Of a stretch of 64,000 nucleotides of DNA, positions 1 to 29,981 are shown one piece after another; position 1 is the stretch's first letter, and each line of letters begins with the position of its first letter. A program made the translations under genes and the position numbers. This stretch comes from Octopus vulgaris (taxonomy: Eukaryota), in contig OX597819.1 in assembly GCA_951406725.2 (NCBI GenBank), positions 72,354,001-72,418,000 on the forward strand. Direction: 5' to 3'. The notes under the pieces are model-generated. The model saw only the letters and a list, made by a program, of their open reading frames with translations. It did not search any database and was not told the DNA's origin.

Positions 1-66
1 ACATACATGCATACATATATACATACATACATACATACATACATACATACATACATACATACATAC

Positions 67-117
<51 letters not shown>

Positions 118-603
118 CATACATACATACATACATACATACATACATACATACATACATACATACATACATGCATACATACATACGTGAATCCAACCGA
201 TGCCAGCATGGAAAGCAGACCATTAAATGATGATGATGAGGAAGAAGAAGAAGAAGAAGAAGAAGAAGAAGAAGAAGAAGAACAGGAGGAGGAGGAAGAA
301 GAAGAAGAAGAAGAAGAAGAAGAGGAGGAGGAAGAAGAAGAAGAAGAAGAAGAAGAAGAAGAAGAAGAAGAGAAGGGGGAAGAAGAAGAAGAAGAAGAAG
401 AAGAAGAAGAGGAGGAGGAAGAAGAAGAAGAAGAGGAGGAGAAAGAAGAAGAAGAAGAAGAAGAGGAGGAAGAAGAAGAAGAAGAAGAAGAAGAAGAGGA
501 GGAGGAGGAAGAAGAAGAAGAAGAACAGGGGGAGGGGAGGGGGAAGAAGAAGAAGAAGAAGAAGAAGAAGAAGAAGAAGAAGAAGAAGAAGAAGAAGAAG
601 AAG

Positions 604-632
<29 letters not shown>
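1..632. repeat. (TACA)n followed by (GAT)n/(GAA/GAG)n microsatellites
   Basis: Directly visible; repeated at ~8555-9106. Explains the poly-E/K/R ORFs. Confidence 0.97.
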
Positions 633-634
<2 letters not shown>

Positions 635-1386
635 GGCGGAAGACGAAGAGAAGGAAGACAAAAAAGAGGAGAAAGAGAAGGAAGATGAGGAGGAGGAGGA
701 ACAGGAGAAAGTAGAACAACAACCACAACATTTTGCTGTATTTGTCTTCATTAGCTAAAAGGCAGGCCTCTAATAAATTATTTCCTCGGCAGTCATTGGA
801 AGATAAATCTTTTTTTATGTAAATAATGTTAGGAAGAAGAAGAAAACAACATAAAATAAATTAAATTGAAAGTAGGGATCACAGAAGATGAAAGATATCA
901 CAATCCCTTTTGTTATTTTTTATTTCTTCTCCCAAAATGACTTGTAAATCTATTGTCGAAAATGATAAGGCATATTTCGACTCTCACCCAACGAGAGGTC
1001 AGCAAAGGAAACAGGCGAAAGGTGAATGTAACTTGACTGTTTATTCGATTTCCCCGGTGAAAATTCTGGAAAGTAATTTAAGTTTGTAAATCAAAACATT
1101 CAGTCAAGATTAGCCGACTTCCTGTTCAGAATTCATTAAGCTCACGTTTTCTATGTTACAGAAAAAGCCACGGTTGGAAAATGAAAGAGGTAAGGAGGGA
1201 GGGTTCTGACAGTCTGGTTGTTCGCGTTGATATCGGACGAAAGGAAAAGCGTTGCCATTTTGATATTTTTCGAATGGGGAGGCATGAGTGCGAGAACGAA
1301 ATTTGCTTAGTTGGCGATGGAGGGTAAACTTGTGAACAAGGTCGATTTTTTTCATTATAATAATCATCATTATTACCATGATTGAG

Positions 1387-1615
1387 GGCGGCGAGCTGGC
1401 AGAATTGTTAGCACGCTGAGCGAAATGCCTAGCGGTATTTTGTCTGCCGTTACGTTCTGAGTTCAAATTCCGCCGAGGTCGACTTTGCCTTTCATCCTTT
1501 CGGGGTCGATTAGATAAGTACCAGTTACGCACTGGTATCGATGTAATCGACTGAAACTCTTTGTCTGTCTTTGTTTGTTCCGTCTATGTTTAGCCCCTGT
1601 GGGTAAGAAAGAAAT
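1387..1615 (+). mobile_element. tRNA-derived SINE, family A
   Basis: Head ggcggcgagctggcagaa, B-box gagttcaaattcc, core gcctttcatcctttcggggtcgat. Related copies at 1643-1770, 9861-10240, 33520-33707(-), 34225-34390, 52905-53100, 62775-62980(-). Confidence 0.85.
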
Positions 1616-2206
1616 GATTATTATTATCATGTTTGTGAAGAAGGCGGCGAGCTGGCAAAATCGTTAGCACGCCGTACAAAATGCTTCGTCCGTTTTTACG
1701 TTCTGAGTTCAAGTTCTGCCGAGGATGACTTTACCTGTCATCCTTTCAGGTTCAATAAAATAAGTATCATTTAAAAGACTTTGCCAATATTTGTGGCTAC
1801 TTCTATACAGGCAATAAAACCTGTCACTGCACCTACAATTTGTTATGCAGCATCCTGACATGTGAAGGGAAGGGAGAGGCTTTACAACAATTCCATCAGA
1901 GTTTTGAATAATTTCCTTTTCGGAGCTGTTTATTGACAGCTGTAATTGAAACTACATCGACTATAAAATTTCACTTAGGTCACTAAAACCTTTGAATGCA
2001 GTTATAATCGTCACAAAAATTCTATTTTCTTTCTTACAAAATGTAAGTCAGTTGTAAGTGGTTAGAAACACAATGACGGGTGCTGTAAGATGAGATCGCT
2101 GTCTTCTTTCGTTCTCAGTGAATTCAAATTGCTTTCACATAGGTCGTTAATGTTCTAAGCCATTGTGGTAGCAACTTCTGATGGAAACAGTGAAAAATTT
2201 TATATA

Positions 2207-2438
2207 CAGGGTGTTCAAAAATCTCTCCGCAGCGAATTTTTTTCTCCAAGATGTATTTCAAAACATGTGCAGAAGAGTCAACTTATGTACTGAAAATGAA
2301 GGACGACACTTTCAACACCTCTTATAAAGTTTTATAAAGTCTTGTAAAGTCTAATATATTCTTTTATAGTCTTATACTATCTTATAAATAGTCATTTTGC
2401 AATACAATACTGCGGAGAGAGACTTTTTGAACACCCTA
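2207..2438 (+). mobile_element. Tc1/mariner-derived MITE
   Basis: TA flanks and TIRs cagggtgttcaaaa / ttttgaacaccct. Interior encodes a transposase-like C-terminus, LQDVFQNMCRRVNLCTENEGRHFQHLL*. Other copies at 10675-10906 and 33799-34051 (reverse). Confidence 0.85.
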
Positions 2439-2594
2439 TAGTTACTCGAGACAAAGAGGTCTTTGAGGTAGTATCTATTCAAGTATTGTTTAAATAAAAA
2501 CTTTTAAAACACGTAAATGTGATTTTATGATAAACTGTTTGTTAAACCCAATAACAATACATACTTCGAAATGTGAATAACGGGAGTGGTTATA

Positions 2595-3020
2595 GGTGCA
2601 GAAGTGGCATAGTAGTTAGTAGTTTGTTTACCAGCCACATGGTTCCGGGTTCAGTCCCGCTGCGTGGCACTCTGGACATGTGTCTTCTACTGTAGCTTCG
2701 GGCCGACCAAAGCCTTGTGAGTGGATTTGGCAGATGGAAACTGAAAGAAGCCCGTCGTATATATATGTGTGTGTGTGTGCGTGTGTGTGTGTATGTGTGT
2801 ATGCTTGTGTGTATGCTTGTGTGTCTGTTTGTCTCCCACCATCAATTGAAAACTGATGTTGGTATGTTTACGTCCCCGTAGGTTAGTGGTTCAGCAAAAG
2901 AGACCGATAGAATAAGTACTAGGCTTACAAAGAATAAATCCTGGGGTGGGTCGATTTGCTCGACCAAAAGCGGTGCTCCAGCATGGCCGTAGTCAAATGA
3001 CTGAAACAAATAAAAGAATA
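2595..3020 (+). mobile_element. tRNA-derived SINE, family B (internal (TG)n, tail ccagcatggcc...tgactgaaacaa)
   Basis: A/B-box-like head (tggcatagtagtt / gggttcagtccc). Many copies: 6525-6730(-), 11063-11480, 17200-17345(-), 17375-17810, 30370-30830(-), 31615-32230(-), 34465-34955(-), 35580-35850(-), 42915-43190(-), 45625-45945, 56265-56410(-), 61560-61700. Confidence 0.85.
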
Positions 3021-4234
3021 TGAATTATAAACAATAAACTAAAATGTCATTTGAAAGACAATGTCAACATTTGTGGGTATTTCTCTACATGCAATAAAGA
3101 CTTTCGCTGCACTTGTAGCGTTAGGTAACGTCCTATGTGAGTGTACATGCATACATACACACCTGCATATGTGCGTGTGTAATGTGTGTGTATACATACA
3201 TACACACATACATACATACATACATACATACATACATACATACATACATACATACATACATACATACATACATACATACATACATACATACGTACGTACG
3301 TACGTACGTACGTACGTACAAGCATATGGATCGTAGCCATAGAGGTTGATAAAAAGTATTTGGAAAAGTATAATTTAAAAGACATTGTCAGTATTTGTGA
3401 ATATTCCTATACATGCATTGGAGGCTGCCACTACACTTGTAACCTGATAGGTAACGTCCTGACTTTAGTGTGCATATAATTATGTATATATTGCTTGAGC
3501 ATCGTTCATTCTAGCTGTCAATGTCATCTGTTAGTCTCATAATCGACCCACATTTTTATATAGACATCTGTCAAGGCACACGTGATCAGAGAAACCAACG
3601 TGTCTGTGTGTGTCTGTGTGTGTGTGTGTGTCTGTGTGAACAAGTAGAAAATACAAGAATAAATTGGAAAATGAAATTAAATTTCAATTGATATTTACAT
3701 GGACAAACATGAAGGACAAAGAAATTGAGCCTAAATTTGAACGAAGTCTCGTACTAGAGATTAGATCATGAACTAAGCTCAAGCGATTATGCACCAATGT
3801 CAGCTCATGTAATAGTGGAGTTGTATTGTGCCAGTCATCCGTGTTAAACTTTCACCCAGAACTAAAATCCTCCAGCTCGTTATTACATGTATGCAGATTA
3901 AAAAAAGGAGTGGATGCTGAAAATTGCAAAGGTGGCCCTGAAAGTCGAAGCAATAGTTAAAAGTTTTTCAGAAGGAACGTTCTAGGCAAAGGCGAGAATG
4001 TTACCATACTCGCAAAAATTCAAATGACTTCCCTTGGAAATTGAAAGTAGTATGTAAGGTTGGTTTATTATAAACCGATTTCAACCGTTCAATGCTTGAC
4101 TTCGTAATTGCTCAGAAACTGCTAAAGCTTACACTGACACAAGACTGGGAGTTTGTTGGAAAGATGTTTAGAGCCCTATTCATACTAGTCAGCAATATAC
4201 CTGTGTCTAATCGAACATAATGGCACTGAGTTTC

Positions 4235-4305
<71 letters not shown>

Positions 4306-4349
4306 GCTAGTGCATATTAAATTAGCAGCTACACCATATATGTATTCAA

Positions 4350-4459
<110 letters not shown>

Positions 4460-4651
4460 CGTTTCCTTGTTTGGTTTTATGTTTTCGTTTCTCGTTGTAT
4501 TCTACGTTTATTTGTGGTGTCCTGTACTCATATACGCATGTATATATACATATAGATGTAGGTATGTACATATATGTAGGTATGTACATATATGTAGGTA
4601 TGTACATATATGTATGTATGTATGCATATGTTTTATTTATTAAATTGTTAT

Positions 4652-4690
<39 letters not shown>

Positions 4691-4757
4691 CGGGAAGCTT
4701 TATGAAAATAGACAAAAGACGAAGGCAGGTTTACGGAAATAAACAAAATAAACATAC

Positions 4758-4790
<33 letters not shown>

Positions 4791-5217
4791 TGTATGTATA
4801 TATAAATGTATATATATATATGTCCAAGCTTGTTTTTACACATTCACCACCACAACCTCGTTTAGGCTTAGCAGCCCTTCCTATTTGTTTTCACTATTCT
4901 GTTTTTGTTGACAATTTTGACCCTCCGCAAAATCCCAAATTTTATTTAATTTGCTTTGCAGGAGCAGCTGTTTTATCGAAGGCATATCTTGTGAAATGCT
5001 CGAAACTGATGAAGGGTCGTTCTTTATGTTGTTTGTCTTGTTTTCCATTTGTGCTTTACAATGCACTCATACTTCATATTTTTTGTTGTTTATGATTTGT
5101 GACGTCCTGTGCCCACATATGCATATATATATTTATGGTCTTTCAAAATATGACTGCGTGTGTACCGTTGGCGATTTTTTCCCCTCTGTCTTCCCTTCTC
5201 TGGATCTTTCCTTCTAT

Positions 5218-5252
5218 ATTTCCGACGAAGAGCTTCGCTCGAAACGGTAAAT
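5218..5252 (+). ncRNA. Hammerhead-ribozyme-like motif (variant core CCGACGA) in a Penelope/retrozyme-like repeat
   Basis: attt-CCGACGA-a-gagc-ttc-gctc-GAAA-cggt-aaat; duplicate copy at ~13520-13554. U4C core change and an imperfect cleavage triplet. Confidence 0.5.
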
Positions 5253-5427
5253 CCTCCTTCTTTCCTTCTTTCATATGCGTCCAATAATACTATATTTGTT
5301 CCACGTCCTCGCGTTGTTGTGTTTTTTTTTTTTTGTGCTTTCTTGTTTGGATTAACTATATATATAAAGTTAATCCAAACAAGAAAACACAGAAAAAAAG
5401 AGAAAAAAAGAAAAAAACACAGCAACG

Positions 5428-5475
<48 letters not shown>

Positions 5476-5509
5476 GTATAGATGTAAATATGTTCATGTA
5501 CGTAAGTAA

Positions 5510-5556
<47 letters not shown>

Positions 5557-5727
5557 CATACGTACATATATATATATATAGGGAAAGTTTACGAAAAAAA
5601 AAAAGACGAAGGCAGGTGGTGTACAAAATAAACAGATGTGTTAGTATAACGCTCAGGAATAGAAAAAGTCTTTTACGGTTTGAGCCTACGCTCTCCTACA
5701 GAAAGGTACACAGAAAAACAAGGAGAG

Positions 5728-5773
<46 letters not shown>

Positions 5774-5869
5774 TTATATAATTAAGGATAAGATCGTTAT
5801 TTTAAATAGCGATCATATCAGGTGGCTAGCATGGGAATAAAAATCTCTTGGGTAATAATTATTGGTAAA

Positions 5870-6138
5870 ATTATAATTAAGGGTATCTAAAAGATACCAT
5901 CATGCTAGAAATAGCAGTCAAAACTTGACTCTAAAACCACATCAAATATTCATACAGCACCAGGAGAGAAGACAAAGAGACAAAATGAAGTAGCAAAAAA
6001 TAATTTTTTGCTAGTTTATTTGGTCTCTTTGTCTTCTCTCCTGGTGGTCTATGAATATTTGATGTGGTTTTAGAGTCAAGTTTTAACTGCTATCTCTAGC
6101 ATGATGGTATCTTTTAGATACCTTTGATAATAATTATA
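5870..6138. repeat. Palindrome/foldback repeat with ~130 bp arms centred at ~6002
   Basis: ggtatctaaaagataccatcatgctaga...tagcaaaaaa mirrored by tttttgcta...tctagcatgatggtatcttttagatacc. Also at ~15615-15885. Confidence 0.9.
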
Positions 6139-6165
6139 TATATATGTGTGTGTGTATGAATATGT

Positions 6166-6233
<68 letters not shown>

Positions 6234-6950
6234 CGTACCCTTATCTGATATATGTCAGACAATATTTTATCCTGTTTCATATACTCTGCTGTTATCTGAT
6301 GAGACAAACAATAGTGATATTGTTACGTTCTATGTTATCGTCGTTGTTGTTGTAGTATGTTTGTAAAATTATCCATCACACCTTATCTTATGAACGTATA
6401 CCTGTTGTAGGGAGATGCATATGTATGTATATAGATAAGTATATCTATATACGTATCTACACGTATATCTATGTGTGTGTGTGTGCGGGTATAACCTACA
6501 TATACCTTGAGTGTATGTATTGTTTTATTGTTTTACTTGTTTCAGTCATGTGACAGCGGTCATGCTGGAGCACCGCCTTTAGTCAAACAAATACACCCCA
6601 GGACTTATTCTTTGTAAGCCTAGTACTTATTCTATCGGTCTCTTTTGCCGAACGGCTAAGTTACGGAAGTGTAAACACATCAACATCGGTTGTCAGGTGA
6701 TAATGGTGGGGGACAAACACAGATACACAAACATATACTTATATTCTGTCTATATTCTGTCACGCTTATTCGTTCATTCCACTCTTCGTTCTTTCGTTTC
6801 CCCCTCTCTCACATTTCTCTGCCTTCTCTTCTTGCTCACTTTCCCTCCACTTTTCACTTCACTGTGTCCCTGTAATTTTTTCTCGCCCCTCCTTAGTTCT
6901 TCTGTTCCTCTGCTTCTACTTCTCCCTCTTCTCTTCTCACGTGACCGGCG

Positions 6951-7050
6951 NNNNNNNNNNNNNNNNNNNNNNNNNNNNNNNNNNNNNNNNNNNNNNNNNN
7001 NNNNNNNNNNNNNNNNNNNNNNNNNNNNNNNNNNNNNNNNNNNNNNNNNN
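6951..7050. other. Assembly gap (100 N)
   Basis: Run of N. Confidence 1.
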
Positions 7051-8385: not shown

Positions 8386-9077
8386 GAGTGTTTTTTCTCA
8401 AGAGCACAACTCAACGCCCGGTCTGGGAATGGAACCCACGATCTCGCAATCGTGTGTGCAACACCCCTAACCACAGAGCCAAAACGCCTTCACTCACATA
8501 CACACGCACACACACACACACACATGCACGCACGCGCGCGCGCATACACGCACATAATACATACATGCATACATATATACATACATACATACATACATAC
8601 ATACATACATACATACATACATACATACATACATACATACATACATACATACATACATACATACATACATACATACATACATACATACATACATACATAC
8701 ATACATACATACGTGAATCCAACCGATGCCAGCATGGAAAGCAGACCATTAAATGATGATGAGGAGGAAGAAGAAGAAGAAGAAGAAGAAGAAGAAGAAG
8801 AAGAAGAAGAAGAAGAAGAAGAAGAGGAGGAGGAGGAAGAAGAAGAAGAAGAAGAAGAAGAAGAGGAGGAGGAGGAAGAAGAAGAAGAAGAAGAAGAAGA
8901 AGAAGAAGAAGAAGAAGAAGAAGGGGGAAGAAGAAGAAGAAGAAGAAGAAGAGGAGGAAGAAGAAGAAGAAGAAGAAGAGGAGGAGGAAGAAGAAGAAGA
9001 AGAAGAAGAGGAGGAAGAAGAAGAAGAAGAAGAAGAAGAAGAAGAAGAAGAAGAAGAAGAAGAAGAAGAAGAAGAAG

Positions 9078-9108
<31 letters not shown>

Positions 9109-12027
9109 GGCGGAAGACGAAGAGAAGGAAGACAAAAAAGAGGAGAAAGAGAAGGAAGATGAGGAGGAGGAGGAACAGGAGAAAGTAGAACAACAACCAC
9201 AACATTTTGCTGTATTTGTCTTCATTAGCTAAAAGGCAGGCCTCTAATAAATTATTTCCTCGGCAGTCATTGGAAGATAAATCTTTTTTTATGTAAATAA
9301 TGTTAGGAAGAAGAAGAAAACAACATAAAATAAATTAAATTGAAAGTAGGGATCACAGAAGATGAAAGATATCACAATCCCTTTTGTTATTTTTTATTTC
9401 TTCTCCCAAAATGACTTGTAAATCTATTGTCGAAAATGATAAGGCATATTTCGACTCTCACCCAACGAGAGGTCAGCAAAGGAAACAGGCGAAAGGTGAA
9501 TGTAACTTGACTGTTTATTCGATTTCCCCGGTGAAAATTCTGGAAAGTAATTTAAGTTTGTAGATCAAAACATTCAGTCAAGATTAGCCGACTTCCTGTT
9601 CAGAATTCATTAAGCTCACGTTTTTTTTGTTACAGAAAAAGCCACGGTTGGAAAATGAAAGAGGTAAGGAGGGAGGGTTCTGACAGTCTGGTTGTTCGCG
9701 TTGATATCGGACGAAAGGAAAAGCGTTGCCATTTTGATATTTTTCGAATGGGGAGGCATGAGTGCGAGAACGAAATTTGCTTAGTTGGCGATGGAGGGTA
9801 AACTTGTGAACAAGGTCGATTTTTTTCATTATAATAATCATCATTATTACCATGATTGAGGGCGGCGAGCTGGCAGAATTGTTAGCACGCTGAGCGAAAT
9901 GCCTAGCGGTATTTTGTCTGCCGTTACGTTCTGAGTTCAAATTCCGCCGAGGTCGACTTTGCCTTTCATCCTTTCGGGGTCGATTAAATAAGTACCAGTT
10001 ACGCACTGGTGTCGATGTAATCGACTGAAACCCTTTTTCTGTCTTTGTTTGTCCCGTCTATGTTTAGCCCCTGTGGGTAAGAAAGAAATTATTATTATCA
10101 TGTTTGTGAAGGCGGCGAGCTGGCAAAATCGTTAGCACGCCGTACAAAATGCTTCGTCCGTTTTTATGTTCTGAGTTCAAATTCTGCCGAGGATGACTTT
10201 ACCTGTCATCCTTTCAGGTTCAATAAAATAAGTATCATTTAAAAGACTTTGCCAACATTTGTGGCTACTTCTATACAGGCAATAAAACCTGTCACTGCAC
10301 CTACAACTTGTTATGCAGCATCCTGACATGTGAAGGGAAGAGAGAGGCTTTACAACAATTCCATCAGAGTTTTGAATAATTTCCTTTTCAGAGCTGTTTA
10401 TTGACAGCTGTAATTGAAACTACATCGACTATAAAATTTCACTTAGGTCACTAAAACCTTTGAATGCAGTTATAATCGTCACAAAAATTCTATTTTCTTT
10501 CTTACAAAATGTAAGTCAGTTGTAAGTGGTTAGAAACACAATGACGGGTGCTGTAAGATGAGATCGCTGTCTTCTTTCGTTCTCAGTGAATTCAAATTGC
10601 TTTCACATAGGTCGTTAATGTTCTAAGCCATTGTGGTAGCAATTCCTGATGGAAACAGTGAAAAATTTTATATACAGGGTGTTCAAAAATCTCTCCGCAG
10701 CGAATTTTTTTCTCCAAGATGTATTTCAAAACATGTGCAGAAGAGTCAACTTATGTACTGAAAATGAAGGACGACACTTTCAACACCTCTTATAAAGTTT
10801 TATAAAGTCTTGTAAAGTCTAATATATTCTTTTATAGTCTTATACTATCTTATAAATATTCATTTTGCAATACAATACTGCGGAGAGAGACTTTTTGAAC
10901 ACACTATAGTTACTCGAGACAAAGAGGTCTTTGAGGTAGTATCTATTCAAGTATTGTTTAAATAATAACTTTTAAAACACGTAAATGTGATTTTGTGATA
11001 AACTGTTTGTTAAACCCAATAACAATACATACTTCGAAATGTGAATAACGGGAGTGGTTATAGGCGCAGAAGTGGCATAGTAGTTAGTAGTTTGTTTACC
11101 AGCCACATGGTTCCGGGTTCAGTCCCGCTGCGTGGCACTCTGGACATGTGTCTTCTACTGTAGCTTCGGGCCGACCAAAGCCTTGTGAGTGGATTTGGCA
11201 GATGGAAACTGAAAGAAGCCCGTCGTATATATATGTGTGTGTGTGTGCGTGTGTGTTTGTGTGTGTATGTGTGTATGCTTGTGTGTCTGTTTGTCTCCCA
11301 CCATCAATTGAAAACTGATGTTGGTATGTTTACGTCCCCGTAGGTTAGTGGTTCAGCAAAAGAGACCGATAGAATAAGTACTAGGCTTACAAAGAATAAA
11401 TCCTGGGGTGGGTCGATTTGCTCGACCAAAGGCGGTGCTCCACCATGGCCGTAGTCAAATGACTGAAACAAATAAAAGAATATGAATTATAAACAATAAA
11501 CTAAAATGTCATTTGAAAGACAATGTCAACATTTGTGGGTATTTCTCTACATGCAATAAAGACTTTCGCTGCACTTGTAACGTTAGGTAACGTCCTATGT
11601 GAGTGTACATGCATACATACACACCTGCATATGTGCGTGTGTAATGTGTGTGTATACATACATACACACATACATACATACATACATACATACATACATA
11701 CATACATACATACATACATACATACATACATACGTACGTACGTACGTACAAGCATATGGATCGTAGCCATAGAGGTTGAAAAAAGTATTTGGATAAGTAT
11801 AATTTAAAAGACATTGTTAGTATTTGTGAATATTCCTATACATGCATTGGAGGCTGCCACTACACGTGTAACCTGATAGGTAACGTCCTGACTTTAGTGT
11901 GCATATAATTATGTATATATTGCTTGAGCATCGTTCATTCTAGCTGTCAATGTCATCTGTTAGTCTCATAATCGACCCACATTTTTATATAGACATCTGT
12001 CAAGGCACACGTGATCAGAGAAACCAA

Positions 12028-12081
<54 letters not shown>

Positions 12082-12680
12082 CAAGTAGAAAACAACTATA
12101 AATTGGAAAATGAAATTAAATTTCAATTGATATTTACATGGACAAACATGAAGGACAAAGAAATTGAGCCTAAATTTGAACGAAGTCTCGTACTAGAGAT
12201 TAGATCATGAACTAAGCTCAAGCGATTATGAACCAATGTCAGCTCATGTAATAGTGGAGTTGTATTGTGCCAGTCATCCGTGTTAAACTTTCACCCAGAA
12301 CTAAAATCCTCCAGCTCGTTATTACATGTATGCAGATTAAAAATAGGAGTGGGTGCTGAAAATTGCAAAGGTGGCCCTGAAAGTCGAAGCAATAGTTAAA
12401 AGTTTTTGAGAAGGAACGTTCTCGGCAAAGGCGAGAATGTTACCATACTCGCAAAAATTCAAATGACTTCCCTTGGAAATTGAAAGTAGTATGTAAGGTT
12501 GGTTTATTATAAACCGATTTCAACCGTTCAATGCTTGACTTCGTAATTGCTCAGAAACTGCTAAAGCTTAAACTGACACAAGACTGGGAGTTTGTTGGAA
12601 AGATGTTTAGAGCCCTATTCATACTAGTCAGCAATATACCTGTGTCTAATCGAACATAATGGCACGGGGTTTCAGTATTA

Positions 12681-12789
<109 letters not shown>

Positions 12790-12833
12790 GCTAGTGCATA
12801 TTAAATTAGCAGCTACGCCATATATGTATTCAA

Positions 12834-12946
<113 letters not shown>

Positions 12947-13058
12947 GTCCGTTTCCTTGTTTGATTTATGTTTTCGTTTCTCGTTGTGTTCTACGTTTAT
13001 TTGTGGTGTCCTGTACTCATATATGCATGTATATATACATATAGATGTAGGTATGTAC

Positions 13059-13091
<33 letters not shown>

Positions 13092-13649
13092 TGTATGTAT
13101 ATATAAATATGTATATATATATGTCCAAGCTTGTTTTTACGCGTTCGCCACCACAACCTCGTTTAGGCTTAGCAGCCCTTCCTATTTGTTTTCACTATTC
13201 TGTTTTTGTTGACAATTTTGACCCTCCGCAAAATCCCAAATTTTATTTAATTTGCTTTGCAGGAGCAGCTGTTTTATCGAAGGCATATCTTGTGAAATGC
13301 TCGAAACTGATGAAGGGTCGTTCTTTATGTTGTTTGTCTTGTTTTCCATTTGTGCTGTTCCATGCACTCATACTTCGTATTTTTTGTTGTTTATGATTTG
13401 TGACGTCCTGTGCCCACATATGCATATATATATATTTATGGTCTTTCAAAATGTGACTGCGTGTGTACCGTTGGCGATTTTTTCCCTCTGTCTTCCCTTC
13501 TCTGGATCTTTCCTTCTATGTTTCCGACGAAGAGCTTCGCTCGAAACGGTAAACCCTCCTTTCCTTCTTTCATAAGCGTCCAATAATCCTATATTTGTTC
13601 CACGTCCTCGCGTTGTTGTGTTTTTTTTTTGTGCTTTCTTGTTTGGATT

Positions 13650-14505
13650 GGGGCTGGCCGAGTTGGAGCAAATATCAGAATTGAACAGCCGAAATTTGCT
13701 ATGATGATTCGGTGTCTGACTGAAGATTGAAGGCTTCGAATGATTTGTCTGTGTTCCGTGTTCGTCCCTTCCTGTATTTCACGTTCTTTATATATAAAAA
13801 CATTTATTCTTATATTATTGCGGCGTTACGTGCCCCCCCCCCCCCCGTTTGTTTGTCCAATTTTAAACCCTGCACGACTTCTATACACTTTGTCTTTCCT
13901 ACCCGCCATTGCTTCTTTACCAAACTATTTTGGCGCCCTCCGATTCTTCCCCCTCTTCCTCCCATCCTCCTTAATCCCTTCTTTCTCCTTTTCTCTTGGT
14001 CACTGATTCTGTCCCCTGCCTTCCACCCTCTTTGATTCCCTCTCTCTCTGTCTCTCTTTCTCTCTCTCTCCTGCAACCTGCTGCTTCTTAACCATTCTGT
14101 TGGCGATCGTATCTCGACCAACATGTGTCCCCTCTACCGAAACGGTAATTATTTCTACGCCAGCTGCTATGTTGTTGTTGTTTTTGTCTCATTTGGTCTA
14201 AAGTCGTAAGACAACCATCGTTATATTTTGTTTATCCATTACTGTTTTCAATTTCGTTTTCGTCTCTTGTATTTACATCCGTCTCGTGCGTTCACATTCC
14301 TGTCTTCTACCAAGAAATCTAATGCTTACAGCTTAGTTTTTTTCTTGGGGCTGGCCGAGTTGGAGCAAATATCAGAATTGAACAGCCGAAATTTGCTATG
14401 ATGATTCGGTGTCTGACTGAAGATTGAAGGCTTCGAATGATTTGTCTGTGTTCCGTGTTCGTCCCTTCCTGTATTTCACGTTCTTTATATATAAAAACAT
14501 TTATT

Positions 14506-14511
<6 letters not shown>
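13650..14511 (+). mobile_element. Non-coding element with 165-bp terminal direct repeat (697-bp period), pLTR/retrozyme-like
   Basis: 13650-13814 is repeated at 14347-14511. Absent from duplication copy 1. A diverged relative lies at ~16480-17115. Confidence 0.65.
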
Positions 14512-14538
<27 letters not shown>

Positions 14539-14752
14539 GTATAGATGTAAATATGTTCATGTACGTAAGTAAGTATATATATATATATACATACGTACAT
14601 ATATATATATATAGGGAAAGTTTACGAAAAAAACAAAAGACGAAGGCAGGTGGTGTACAAAATAAACAGATGTGTTAGTATAACGCTCAGGAATAGAAAA
14701 AGTCTTTTACGGTTTGAGCCTACGCTCTCCTACAGAAAGGTACACAGGAGAG

Positions 14753-14788
<36 letters not shown>

Positions 14789-14792
<4 letters not shown>

Positions 14793-15475
14793 GAAATATT
14801 AAAATAACTAAGTCTCTCTAAAAGAGAACAGCGGCAGCGTTCCCGGAAAATAATAGTTATCGCCATACTAATATGGCATTCTTATAAAAATAAGAAAAAA
14901 GCTGTCCGCTTATTAGCTCCATGAGGCCATCGCCTTAAGTTAGCTATTTGATACACAAACTGTATCCATATAACCTTCGAACAAGGGAGGTCAGTCGCTC
15001 CACACTACTTGACCGGCAGCTACAGACGCGTTTCGGGGTATTGCCCCTTTTCAATGCAGCGTAGCCAGCCAGTAGGTGTCGCTTCCGACAATCTCTGTTC
15101 GATGGTTTTATTTACCTAGTTTCGGTGGAATACATCCACTTGTTTTCAATAATAGAAATATTAAAATAACTAAGTCTCTCTAAAAGAGAACAGCGGCAGC
15201 GTTCCCGGAAAATAATAGTTATCGCCATACTAATATGGCATTCTTATAAAAATAAGAAAAAAGCTGTCCGCTTATTAGCTCCATGAGGCCATCGCCTTAA
15301 GTTAGCTTAAGTTGCCGGTCAAGTAGTGTGGAGCGACTGACCTCCCTTGTTCGAAGGTTATATGGATACAGTTTGTGTATCAAATAGCTAACTTAAGGCG
15401 ATGGCCTCATGGAGCTAATAAGCGGACAGCTTTTTTCTTATTTTTATAAGAATGCCATATTAGTATGGCGATAAC

Positions 15476-15480
<5 letters not shown>
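14789..15480 (-). mobile_element. Retrozyme/Penelope-like non-autonomous element: 362-bp unit x1.4 plus an inverted segment, inserted in (TA)n
   Basis: 14789-14945 is repeated at 15151-15307; 15313-15480 is the reverse complement of 14851-15018. (TA)n on both sides, and the matching site in copy 1 (~5730-5770) is empty. Confidence 0.8.
15019..15060 (-). ncRNA. Type I hammerhead ribozyme, U3-A8 core variant
   Basis: Minus strand: gctgca-TTGAAAA-gggg-caata-cccc-GAAA-cgcg-TC-tgtagc. Stem I 6 bp (one G-U), stem II 4 bp, palindromic stem III ACGCGU, GUC triplet. Confidence 0.8.
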
Positions 15481-15517
<37 letters not shown>

Positions 15518-15908
15518 TTATATAATTAAGGATAAGATCGTTATTTTAAATAGCGATCATATCAGGTGGCTAGCATGGGAATAAAAATCTCTTGGGTAAT
15601 GAATTATTGGTAAAATTATAATTAAGGGTATCTAAAAGATATCATCATGCTAGAAATAGCAGTCAAAACTTGACTCTAAAACCACATCAAATATTCATAC
15701 AGCACCAGGAGAGAAGACAAAGAGACAAAATAAAGTATCAAAAAATAATTTTTTGCTAGTTTATTTGGTCTCTTTGTCTTCTCTCCTGGTGGTCTATGAA
15801 TATTTGATGTGGTTTTAGAGTCAAGTTTTAACTGCTATCTCTAGCATGATGGTATCTTTTAGATACCTTTGATAATAATTATATATATGTGTGTGTGTAT
15901 GAATATGT

Positions 15909-15974
<66 letters not shown>

Positions 15975-17114
15975 CGTACCCTTATCTGATATAAGTCAGA
16001 CAATATTTTATCCTGTTTCATATACTCTGCTGTTATCTGATGAGACAAACAATAGTGATATTGTTTCGTTCTATGTTATCGTCGTTGTTGTTGTAGTATG
16101 TTTGTAAAATTATCCATCACACCTTATCTTATGAACGTATACCTGTTGTAGGGAGATGCATATGTATGTATATAGATAAGTATATCTATATACGTATCTA
16201 CACGTATATCTATGTGTGTGTGTGCGGGTATAACCTACATATACCTTGAGTGTATGTATTGTTTTATTGTTTTACTTGTTTCAGTCATGTGACAGCGGTC
16301 ATGCTGGAGCACCGCCTTTAGTCAAACAAATACACCCCAGGACTTATTCTTTGTAAGCCTAGTACTTATTCTATCGGTCTCTTTTGCCGAACGGCTAAGT
16401 TACGGAAGTGTAAACACATCAACATCGGTTGCCAGGTGATAATGGTGGGGGACAAACACAGATACACAAACATATACCTATATTCTGTCTATATTCTGTC
16501 ACGCTTATTCGTTCATTCCACTCTTCGTTCTTTCGTTTCCCCCTCTCTCACATTTCTCTGCCTTCTCTTCTTGTTCACTTTCCCTCCACTTTTCACTTCA
16601 CTGTGTCCCTGTAATTTTTTCTCGCCCCTCCTTAGTTCTTCTGTTCCTCTGCTTCTACTTCTCCCTCTTCTCTTCTCACGTGACCGGCGTTCGGCCAAGC
16701 TTTCTTTCTTGGTCTGGTCGTTGTCCGTGCAATATCGATATTCCTCATTGTGTTTGTGAAATCTTGTATCCCTACCGTAAGGCTTAATTTCCACACACGC
16801 CAGCTTAATTTAATTCGTCCTTAGTCGAAAGAGATCTGTTGTTATATCCTGTTTATTTTATGGTATTTGTGTAACATTGTCTGTTTTTTTCCGTCCTTGT
16901 TTTTGTATATATTCGCTGCTTTCTTCCAAGGAATCTAATGCTCTTAGCTTAGTTTTTCCTTGGGGCCGGCCAGATTGGAGCAATCTCAAGTATAATCAGC
17001 CGAAATTGCGAAGTTAATCTGGTACTTGACTAAGGAAAGAACACTTCAAATGACCCGTCCTTGGTTTCTTTGTATCGTCTGCCTGGATGTTTTGCGATCC
17101 CATTTTGTATTTTT

Positions 17115-17200
<86 letters not shown>

Positions 17201-17535
17201 CGACGGGCTTCTTTCAGTTTCCGTCTACTAAATCTACTCACAAAGCCTTGATCAACCTGAGGGTATAGCAGAAGATACTTACCCAAGGAGACTGAAACCT
17301 AAACCATGTGGTTGAAACGCAAGATTCTTATCACACAGCCACATGATGGGTGTGTAGAATATATGCATATATAGTGGTTGTGTGGTAAGTAGCTTGCTTA
17401 CCAACCACATGGTTCCGGGTTCAGACCCACTGCGTGACACCTTAGCCGAGTGTCTTCTACTATAGCTTTGGGCCGACCAAAGCCTTGTGAGAGGATCTGG
17501 TAGACGGAAACTGAAAGAGGCCCGTCATATATATG

Positions 17536-28847: not shown

Positions 28848-29981
28848 GTTAGTTAGTTAGTTAATTTGGCTCAAAAGCAAATAGCAAGGCCATGTAGGGG
28901 GACATGGAGTTAAGTACAGGGTGGTGTTCATGTAAAGAGTTCAGGCCACTTGAGGTCCAGGGAGGCTTTGAACAAAGCGGTCGTCGGCATCTTCACCATC
29001 TCGTCTGGCAGCTTGTTCCACGGATCCGCAACCCGGACGGAGAAAGCTCCTCTCCTTCGATTGAGATGAAATCGTCGCAGGTAGAGCTTTTCGGAATGAC
29101 CCCGCAGCCGACGCTCTGGAGCAGGAGTGAAGAACAGCTCTTTCGAGAGGTTACACTTTCCGCTTATAATGTTATGGGCGAGAATGAGATCACCACGGCG
29201 GCGGCGTTTTTCAAGAGAATAAAGGTCGAGCGTCCTCAGCCTTTCTTCGTAGGACAAATTTTTGAGACCATGAACCATGCGGGTAGCCAGCTTCTGGACT
29301 CTTTCGAAATGCTGTATGTCTTTGAGGAGATAAGGAGAAGAGGCTTGAATCCCATACTCCAATATGGGTCTCACCAGCGTGACATAGAGTGGTAGGAATA
29401 TGGCTGCTGTGAGCATTCCGAATGACCGTCGAATCAAGAACAGAATTCCGCGTGCTTTGTTGGCAGCATGGACGCACTGGGCCGAAGGCGAAAAGGAGGA
29501 ATCCACCAAGATACCCAGGTCCTTTACCTGATCGGTCCTCTCCAGCAGCAGACGACCCGGCTCGAAATCAAGTTGAGTTGCAGGAGTAGAGCCGACAGGC
29601 AGATGACAGCACTTTGACACGTTCAGACACAGGTCCCAATCGTTAGACCACTTCCAAATTTGGTGGAGGCATCGACGAAGATCCTCTATATTACCGCGAG
29701 GAGCGACTAGTTTGATATCGTCGGCAAATAGAAGGGTGTGTTGCGTGAGGTCGTCGGGCATGTCATTTATGAAGACTAAGAACAACAAGGGCCCAAGCAC
29801 TGAACCTTGAGGCACGCCACTGCTCGCACTGGAGACGTCGGACCGCGAACCATTAACTTGGACTTGGAAGGAGCGATCTGAGAGGAAGGCACCAACCCAT
29901 CGTATAATATCCGGATGGAAACTATATGCTTGAAGCTTGACAAGTAATAGGCGGCGGTTTACCGAGTCAAAAGCTTTGGCT
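28848..29981 (-). mobile_element. 5'-truncated CR1-like LINE (RT C-terminal half, open frame)
   Basis: AKAFDSV...GVPQGSVLGPLLF...LFADDIKL...KDLGILVD...LVRPILEY...ERVQKLATRMV..LSYEERL...RGH, with a (TAAC)n tail at ~28848-28864. Confidence 0.92.

Follow-up and report, generated by a model that had tools for sequence, protein, structure and literature searches.

A probable non-circularly permuted hammerhead ribozyme with a split catalytic strand in non-coding, Penelope-like tandem repeats of Octopus vulgaris

Introduction

Two divergent repeats in a 64,000-nt stretch of Octopus vulgaris DNA (hereafter the window) preserve the same set of pairings, and the question raised by this locus is what kind of RNA such a fold represents. 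A first-pass annotation had read it as a structured RNA conserved in a retroelement, perhaps an unusual ribozyme that cleaves itself, and had judged that it fits neither the hammerhead nor the HDV or twister consensus. As far as sequence can tell, the general proposal is supported by the complete core and the covariation reported here; the verdict against the hammerhead has to be reversed, since the motif fits a permuted one. We conclude that it is quite probably a non-circularly permuted hammerhead, present once per unit of non-coding, Penelope-like tandem repeats, and that it likely cuts the repeat RNA once per unit. It appears not to be a new chemical class: what is new is the wiring of a complete hammerhead core.

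Results and Discussion

The host repeats

Two insertions in the window carry the fold, and contain the following features in addition to the family A copy analysed in detail below (copy A).

13650 to 14509, + strand: family A insertion, a 5'-truncated, non-coding head-to-tail array of 1.2 units whose 3' end runs into (TA)n
13652 to 13726, + strand: first ribozyme copy of this array, matched by the structure descriptor; the 5' strand of the closing helix (Pc) and the hairpin upstream were lost with the truncation
16496 to 17117, + strand: family B insertion, of an older family whose unit is related to that of family C; it is truncated on the 5' side, where the boundary is approximate, and ends in (TA)n
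16910 to 17052, + strand: family B ribozyme copy (copy B), decayed: the core is CUAAGGA (G5A), stem II contains a C.A mismatch and the A of the K-turn is broken

The family A unit is 697 nt long and non-coding, and is repeated head-to-tail with a unit junction near 13812. A first look at the 2.8-Gb genome, which has repeats corresponding to octopus elements already published, gave 1860 candidates for its core, and all 40 scored matches were at 100% identity. From 60 loci we obtained 51 distinct arrays, whose 5' ends are scattered and 18 of which exceed one unit; complete 3' ends meet a TA microsatellite in 50 of 50 cases. The unit is covered by contigs of 4 sequencing runs that we guess to be RNA, assembled contigs being blind to ends, strand and level.

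The start of the inserted element at ggggctggccg, the first strand of the fold, had been taken as significant. The starts in the window do fall at 13648-13650, but as a truncation point: only 2 of the 51 distinct arrays start at 14344-14352, one of them being the window's own. The start at 13650 is a chance 5' truncation, and the argument from it to a cleavage site or a true 5' end fails. Nor is the insertion clean, as about 77 nt of duplicate 1 (5354-5430) are missing from duplicate 2.

Non-coding head-to-tail units, variable 5' truncation, a fixed 3' end and one ribozyme per unit form the pattern of non-autonomous Penelope-like elements (PLEs) and non-LTR retrozymes. Animal non-LTR retrozymes, as described in the available text of Cervera and de la Pena 2020 (PMC7229834) and Li et al. 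2026 (10.64898/2026.07.22.740005), are likewise non-coding, tandem and PLE-linked with one hammerhead per unit; however, their hammerheads are of type I, in place of which the octopus unit has the permuted split-core form, and their circular RNA has been demonstrated, whereas circles of the octopus units are a prediction.

Neither an ORF linked to families A-F nor an autonomous protein-coding partner was found among the loci examined, and the suggestion of an IRES-like element finds no support, there being no ORF linked to the unit. The GIY-YIG ORFs beside family A in L022, L026 and L010 were rejected as partners: they are separate neighbours with their own ends. A Neptune-like element with open RT and GIY-YIG frames of up to 784 aa and TA ends is a candidate mobiliser of families A-F. 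Intact Neptune-like PLEs (RVT_1 plus GIY-YIG) are abundant at L188-L203 (for example L201:13-1917, +), with an atypical minimal hammerhead near the TA-ended 3' end. Different repeat families nest side by side in the same TA microsatellites (L229, L230, L040, L054).

Family B yielded 2433 first-look candidates in the genome. It is homologous to family A (74% over 148 nt), and families B and C have related units with the same unit-start motif after a TA-like tract. This motif, GCGGCG followed by TACGT just after the TA-like priming site, occurs in families A, B and C (window 13812-13835; L213:910-940; L218:930-960) and is a candidate RT-recognition element.

The fold of copy A

The strands of the fold in copy A are located as follows; nucleotide numbers of the type G10.1 are those of the hammerhead core.

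14136 to 14212, + strand: upstream block of small hairpins (hairpin, GCCAGC, GNRA hairpin), common to families A-E
14295 to 14299 and 14302 to 14309, + strand: 5' strands of Pc, in the RNAfold minimum free energy (MFE) structure, with double changes in 3 of 8 proximal pairs
14310 to 14348, + strand: hairpin P0, pairing ccaagaa (14310-16) with ttcttgg (14342-48), with no linker to G10.1
14349 to 14353 with 14383 to 14387, + strand: stem II, ggctg with cagcc; G10.1 is 14349 and C11.1 is 14387
14354 to 14361 with 14403 to 14410, + strand: stem I-II interaction helix, gccgagtt with gattcggt; 3 of 9 pairs change on both sides
14362 to 14364, + strand: non-bulged K-turn strand GGA, contiguous with the 5' strand of the interaction helix (14354 to 14364)
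14365 to 14370 with 14391 to 14396, + strand: stem III, gcaaat with atttgc; U16.1 is 14370
14371, + strand: H17 (A), with the cut predicted between 14371 and 14372 by analogy with the hammerhead core; triplet AUA
14372 to 14376 with 14412 to 14416, + strand: stem I, tcaga with tctga, the strand beginning at 14412 (the 5' strand) leading into CUGAnGA
14388 to 14391, + strand: G12-A13-A14-A15.1 (GAAA), between the 3' strands of stems II and III
14397 to 14402, + strand: 3-nt K-turn bulge and GA(U), bulge positions 1 and 3 variable
14417 to 14423, + strand: catalytic CUGAnGA, one element with the 5' strand of stem I (14412 to 14423)
14424 to 14439, + strand: 3' strands of Pc, directly 3' of A9, in the RNAfold MFE structure

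Read 5' to 3', the core opens with the 5' strand of stem II and one strand of the interaction helix; stem III, NUH and stem I come next, then the 3' strand of stem II with GAAA and stem III, the other strand of the interaction helix, and last stem I with CUGAnGA. All the pairings named in the first-pass annotation are present on the + strand of copy A, with equivalents in copy B at 16926-17029, and the structure descriptor matches both family A copies of the window and has 0 matches in 100 first-order Markov copies of it. The + strand corresponds to the RNA: its G-U pairs become mismatches on the - strand, and the descriptor matches the + strand only. Both Pc and P0 are predicted unaided by RNAfold. 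Two elements had been missed, the closing helix (14295-14309 with 14424-14439) and the K-turn. The GNRA-type hairpins reported upstream do exist in both copies, at 14136-46 and 14203-12 in A and at 16774-83 and 16824-33 in B, but lie outside the ribozyme. The block that they form with GCCAGC (14136-14212; 16774-16833) is kept in families A-E although the spacers diverge.

Covariation of the helices

Covariation was evaluated in an alignment (A3) of 20 rows with an intact upstream part, namely 14 of the 30 loci retrieved with a pattern that excludes the cores of families A and B (56 matches, control 0), 4 family B loci and the 2 window copies; 14 of the 20 rows were therefore chosen by a pattern that fixes part of the core. 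In this A-E lineage 13 of 53 pairs change on both sides and 92% of the cells are paired, a result reached by 0 of 500 shuffles, with 30-48% paired in slid controls; as the copies are related, such pair counts are inflated and the shuffle counts are not probabilities. All helices covary.

Stem II gives the cleanest test: family C, found by fixing only its 3' strand (39 matches, control 0), leaves the upstream strand free to vary. Of 25 family C loci, 3 are truncated or deleted there, and 20 of the 22 informative ones have the compensating C; in family B the base is U in all 28 parsed loci, so that U-A in B stands against C-G in C. The covariation that had been claimed for this stem, ggc(t/c)g with cagcc between the two window copies, does not hold: ggccg with cagcc in copy B is a C.A mismatch private to that copy, given that 24 of 29 other B loci have GGCTG, and the true covariation comes from family C (GGCCG with CGGCC). 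Copy B matches the descriptor only with a relaxed core. The other B loci have CUGAGGA in 21 of 29 cases, and G5A is the mutation used to abolish cleavage in the available text of Eckert et al. 2023 (PMC10085705); judging from its core, copy B is presumably dead catalytically.

A complete hammerhead core in a different order

Every element of the hammerhead core is present, but out of order, with the 5' strand of stem II upstream of all others. CUGAnGA follows stem I, GAAA lies between stems II and III, and a UH site lies between stems III and I; all 11 core positions sit on the correct helices. Stems I, II and III covary in A3, with G10.1-C11.1 in 20 of 20 and A15.1-U16.1 in 19 of 20 rows. Across families the cleavage triplet is AUA, AUC, GUC or GUA, never NUG. 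In family A copies anchored elsewhere 666 of 666 letters of CUGAnGA are kept, and N7 is free (A1, G5, C8, T6 in A3, and all four bases across families). A GARG/CUUC hairpin over the core was rejected because N7 takes all four bases, and a type I minimal hammerhead formed with the downstream CGAAU...GUC was rejected for having neither stem I nor GAAA.

The block order S, G, C and the stem I-II interaction helix are those of type SGC, and the crossing stems differ from the orders of types I, II and III (CGS, GSC and SCG, without core pseudoknots). A strict type SGC does not describe the fold, as the partner of stem II lies upstream and covaries, and the strand after CUGAnGA pairs in the closing helix. 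We interpret the fold as the non-circular SGC/CSG strand ring of Eckert et al. 2023, here apparently opened between A9 and G10.1, Pc and P0 being two extra helices inserted in the catalytic core at that point. In the parts of that paper available to us (PMC10085705), the SGC and CSG rings cleave in vitro, CUGAnGA is assumed to adjoin stem II directly with no insertion of more than 1-2 nt there, and only two CSG sequences, from metagenomes, are given.

Compared with type SGC as represented there by HRIMA-1 and its variants, the octopus fold has the same S-G-C order, short linker between stems I and II, interaction helix and double pseudoknot, but splits block C, adds two helices at A9/G10.1 and has a K-turn; its host is a chromosomal animal retroelement, whereas the SGC sequences came from metatranscriptomes. 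Type CSG (PMC10085705) has the same cyclic order, but there the opening of the ring follows stem III and the core strand is unbroken. The pistol-like pseudoknot hammerhead of PDB 8YDC (Zhan et al. 2024, PMC11300833, as far as the accessible text goes) also makes helix II a pseudoknot and keeps the core chemistry, but its connectivity is different and no break at A9/G10.1 is seen in it.

The K-turn is recognised by its sequence pattern, a 3-nt bulge followed by tandem G.A/A.G between two helices, whose G, A, G and A are kept in 20, 19, 20 and 19 of the 20 rows of A3. It would offer an answer to a geometry problem left open in the available text of Eckert et al., namely how stem III is connected at its end to the stem I-II helix. 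A published description of the split-core wiring was not found in the literature searched, which included few subscription papers, and within that literature these would be the first non-circularly permuted hammerheads in animal chromosomes. If correct, the assignment breaks the stated rule that the CUGAnGA strand of a hammerhead runs straight into stem II, and the inserted helices would be a natural port for regulation or engineering.

The same wiring with unrelated stems

A looser descriptor run over 228 loci brought up, in four flanks, a lineage with unrelated stems and the same wiring (lineage F; first loci L011:43-112 (+), L019:2243-2321 (+), L021:179-255 (-) and L068:45-122 (-), also L229-L253). 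It has 2213 exact matches in the genome (control 0), tandem units of about 830-875 nt and several young subfamilies; 13 of 36 pairs show double changes, against 0 of 500 shuffles. A clear K-turn is missing. P0 lies directly against G10.1 in 56 of 85 copies, the remainder being truncated or changed, and the same junction without linker occurs in families A-E and in the Naiad-type copies described next. A pattern scan of metagenomes gave 0 of 120 loci passing the descriptor.

Naiad elements are PLEs that, in the available text of Craig et al. 2021 (PMC8557442), target (TA)n, are 5'-truncated and occur in tandem, all of which holds for our repeats. They are reported there without canonical hammerheads, some 'HHR_core/half_core' sequences fitting no descriptor. 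We inspected by eye the last 300-450 nt of 50 of the 54 published consensuses in the supplement. Six of the 50 end in the split wiring with P0 against G10.1, namely Naiad_Obim, Ovul, Amil, Aacu, Anas and Bfor, that is, two octopus, three Acropora and Beroe; intact type-CSG hammerheads could be recognised by eye at the 3' ends of six nematode Naiads (Hcon, Hpol, Asuum, Nbra-1/2/3; File S5). In the remaining consensuses the stretch examined contains a motif that is twister-like or unassigned, or else none. A second conserved 3' motif is shared by Naiads CGi, Sglo, Olur, Tgra, Pmar, Chem-1/2, Skow and Pfla in the same supplement, and is possibly a ribozyme not yet recognised.

The octopus Naiad motif has 349 matches in the genome (control 0), and 19 of 50 loci pass the descriptor; of 24 parsed copies the core is complete in 22 and the GA/GA K-turn is present in 19. 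The 3' motifs that may be twister-like are those of Naiad-4_Chem, Movir-1, Mgal, Bpla, Mphi, Scon and Mmer. Families A-F share with the octopus Naiad 3' end only the fold, with no detectable sequence likeness, and have no ORF with an N-terminal GIY-YIG and a C-terminal RT linked to the 3' end, as a Naiad PLE does. Nor could the Naiad-type 3' end be joined to a Naiad ORF in this genome, so that the link rests on the published consensus; the Naiad ORF fragment in L143 was rejected as a partner for the same lack of a join. Cephalopod Naiads are reported dead in the available part of PMC8557442, in contrast to the young family A. The fold likely derives from Naiad elements, and is likely the putative self-cutting RNA reported missing from them, which would explain why descriptor searches reported Naiads without hammerheads.

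The 5' ends of genomic copies

If the RNA is cut, reverse transcription of the cut template may leave copies that end near the site. For 100 lineage F copies anchored at the core (the first 100 of 2802 matches), 15 of 92 5' ends fall at +2 to +8 from the predicted cut (1.48 per nt per 100), with a peak at +6/+7, compared with 8 of 100 at +11 to +40 (0.27 per nt per 100, four of these being one duplicated insertion) and 2 of 77 at -1 to -20, upstream of the cut (0.13 per nt per 100). An overlapping sample gave 18 of 85 ends (p 4e-10). The linkers of six peak copies have no TA microhomology beyond one base.

The signal in family A is broader. Among 100 passes anchored at the 3' tail (the first 100 of 354 matches), 11 ends fall in 14369-14391, compared with 17 over the preceding 229 nt (14140-14368; p 1e-4); another 11 lie in 14392-14423, where the rate is likewise raised, and the comparison of the site window with downstream positions only has p 0.04. 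The three family A ends at the site share ATAT with the flank. None of 51 longer arrays ends at the site, in a sample whose queries favoured long copies, and 57 of the 100 passes read through it, which fits circles or uncut multimers. The 5'-end peak lies 2-12 nt short of the cut and not at the cut itself. We take the pile-up just 3' of the predicted cut as an indirect sign of cleavage in vivo, and run-off from cut RNA fits it better than stalling, because at the peak the last helix has already been unwound by RT, and P0, the stronger hairpin, is without a peak.

These results suggest the following life cycle. In the folded RNA, Pc (from A9) and P0 (up to G10.1) would stack end to end in a five-way junction and hold A9 and G10.1 together, and the K-turn would bend stem III back into the interaction helix. 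Transcripts of tandem arrays would be cut to unit length and possibly circularised, and a Penelope-like RT/GIY-YIG protein acting in trans would prime at (TA)n, some 135 nt 3' of the cut. In most passes RT would read through an uncut or religated site and produce arrays; in about 10-20% it would run off a cut template and produce the pile-up of 5' ends.

Taken as a whole, we lean, with less assurance than for the assignment itself, towards an active hammerhead with a divided catalytic strand, the two parts of which are bridged by stacked helices. To the six block orders regarded as possible it would add a seventh natural wiring, one conserved among the Naiads of ctenophore, coral and octopus, with nematode Naiads having an intact CSG of the same ring; Naiads would swap ribozyme types rather than lack them, and the genome would record cleavage in vivo as a pile-up of 5' truncations.

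Alternative readings

An unlikely but coherent alternative is that the RNA is derived from a hammerhead and normally off: P0 would stack on stem II, cleavage would take place only with the retroelement protein or never, the fold would owe its conservation mainly to RT binding or protection of the RNA, and RT stalling in the knot would give the 5'-end peak. It would account for the passes that read through, the majority in family A, and for 5' ends raised in that family over the whole 3' half of the fold; P0 against stem II without linker, as in all lineages, could block the A9.G12 pair. There is also a precedent in the Anolis PLE, which uses uncut RNA in vitro and whose hammerhead is protein-assisted, mutants of it being without effect on insertion in vitro (PMC11167929). 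Yet three lineages with unrelated stems retain all the catalytic nucleotides and the exclusion of G from position 17, and stalling is at odds with a peak that follows the unwinding of the last helix and is lacking at the stronger hairpin.

It is very unlikely that the motif is instead an ordinary type-SGC hammerhead, whose stem II would be formed by the strand after CUGAnGA, the upstream strand being a competing or inhibitory pairing. Such a pairing can be drawn in lineage F between CCUUC and the AGGGG that follows the core, with two G-U pairs and one bulged A, and family A has GGCU 5 nt after the core; it is absent in families B and C and in the Naiad-type lineage, and covariation links the sequence 3' of the core to the 5' side of the closing helix and the upstream strand to stem II.

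We give still less weight to a different functional class, IRES-like or a new class of ribozyme, that merely resembles a hammerhead. HDV-like and twister ribozymes are defined by their own stem order and conserved loops, and the earlier judgement that the motif belongs to neither was right: there is no Rfam match, and the stem order differs. Rfam is silent altogether, with nothing at the gathering score in the window and only microsatellite artefacts among the E-value matches in 13000-17300, a point in favour of a different class; this silence says little, because Rfam also missed the ordinary PLE hammerhead at 13524. The 11 core positions on the right helices, and the lack of a following ORF, argue against such a class.

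Chance pairing, or neutral sequence shared by descent, deserves practically no credence and is already refuted: the nested MFE is unremarkable (z -1.33; RNAfold, pseudoknots left out of the model) and A and B are homologous, but the descriptor finds 0 matches in 100 controls and three lineages have different stems with the same wiring.

Neighbouring features

The window contains a recent tandem duplication of about 8.4-9.7 kb (about 1-6950 and 8450-16700), in the region of which there are an N gap (6951-7050) and a 78-nt sequence repeated six times (73-100% alike), in appearance a series of short repeated exons. Ordinary minimal hammerheads of the Penelope type are present at 13524-13551 and 5222-5249 (+), in a different repeat, and family A is inserted into the flank of the repeat that bears the former. 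An RT fragment at 28931-29980 (-; RVT_1, E 1e-19) is not linked to the ribozyme motif.
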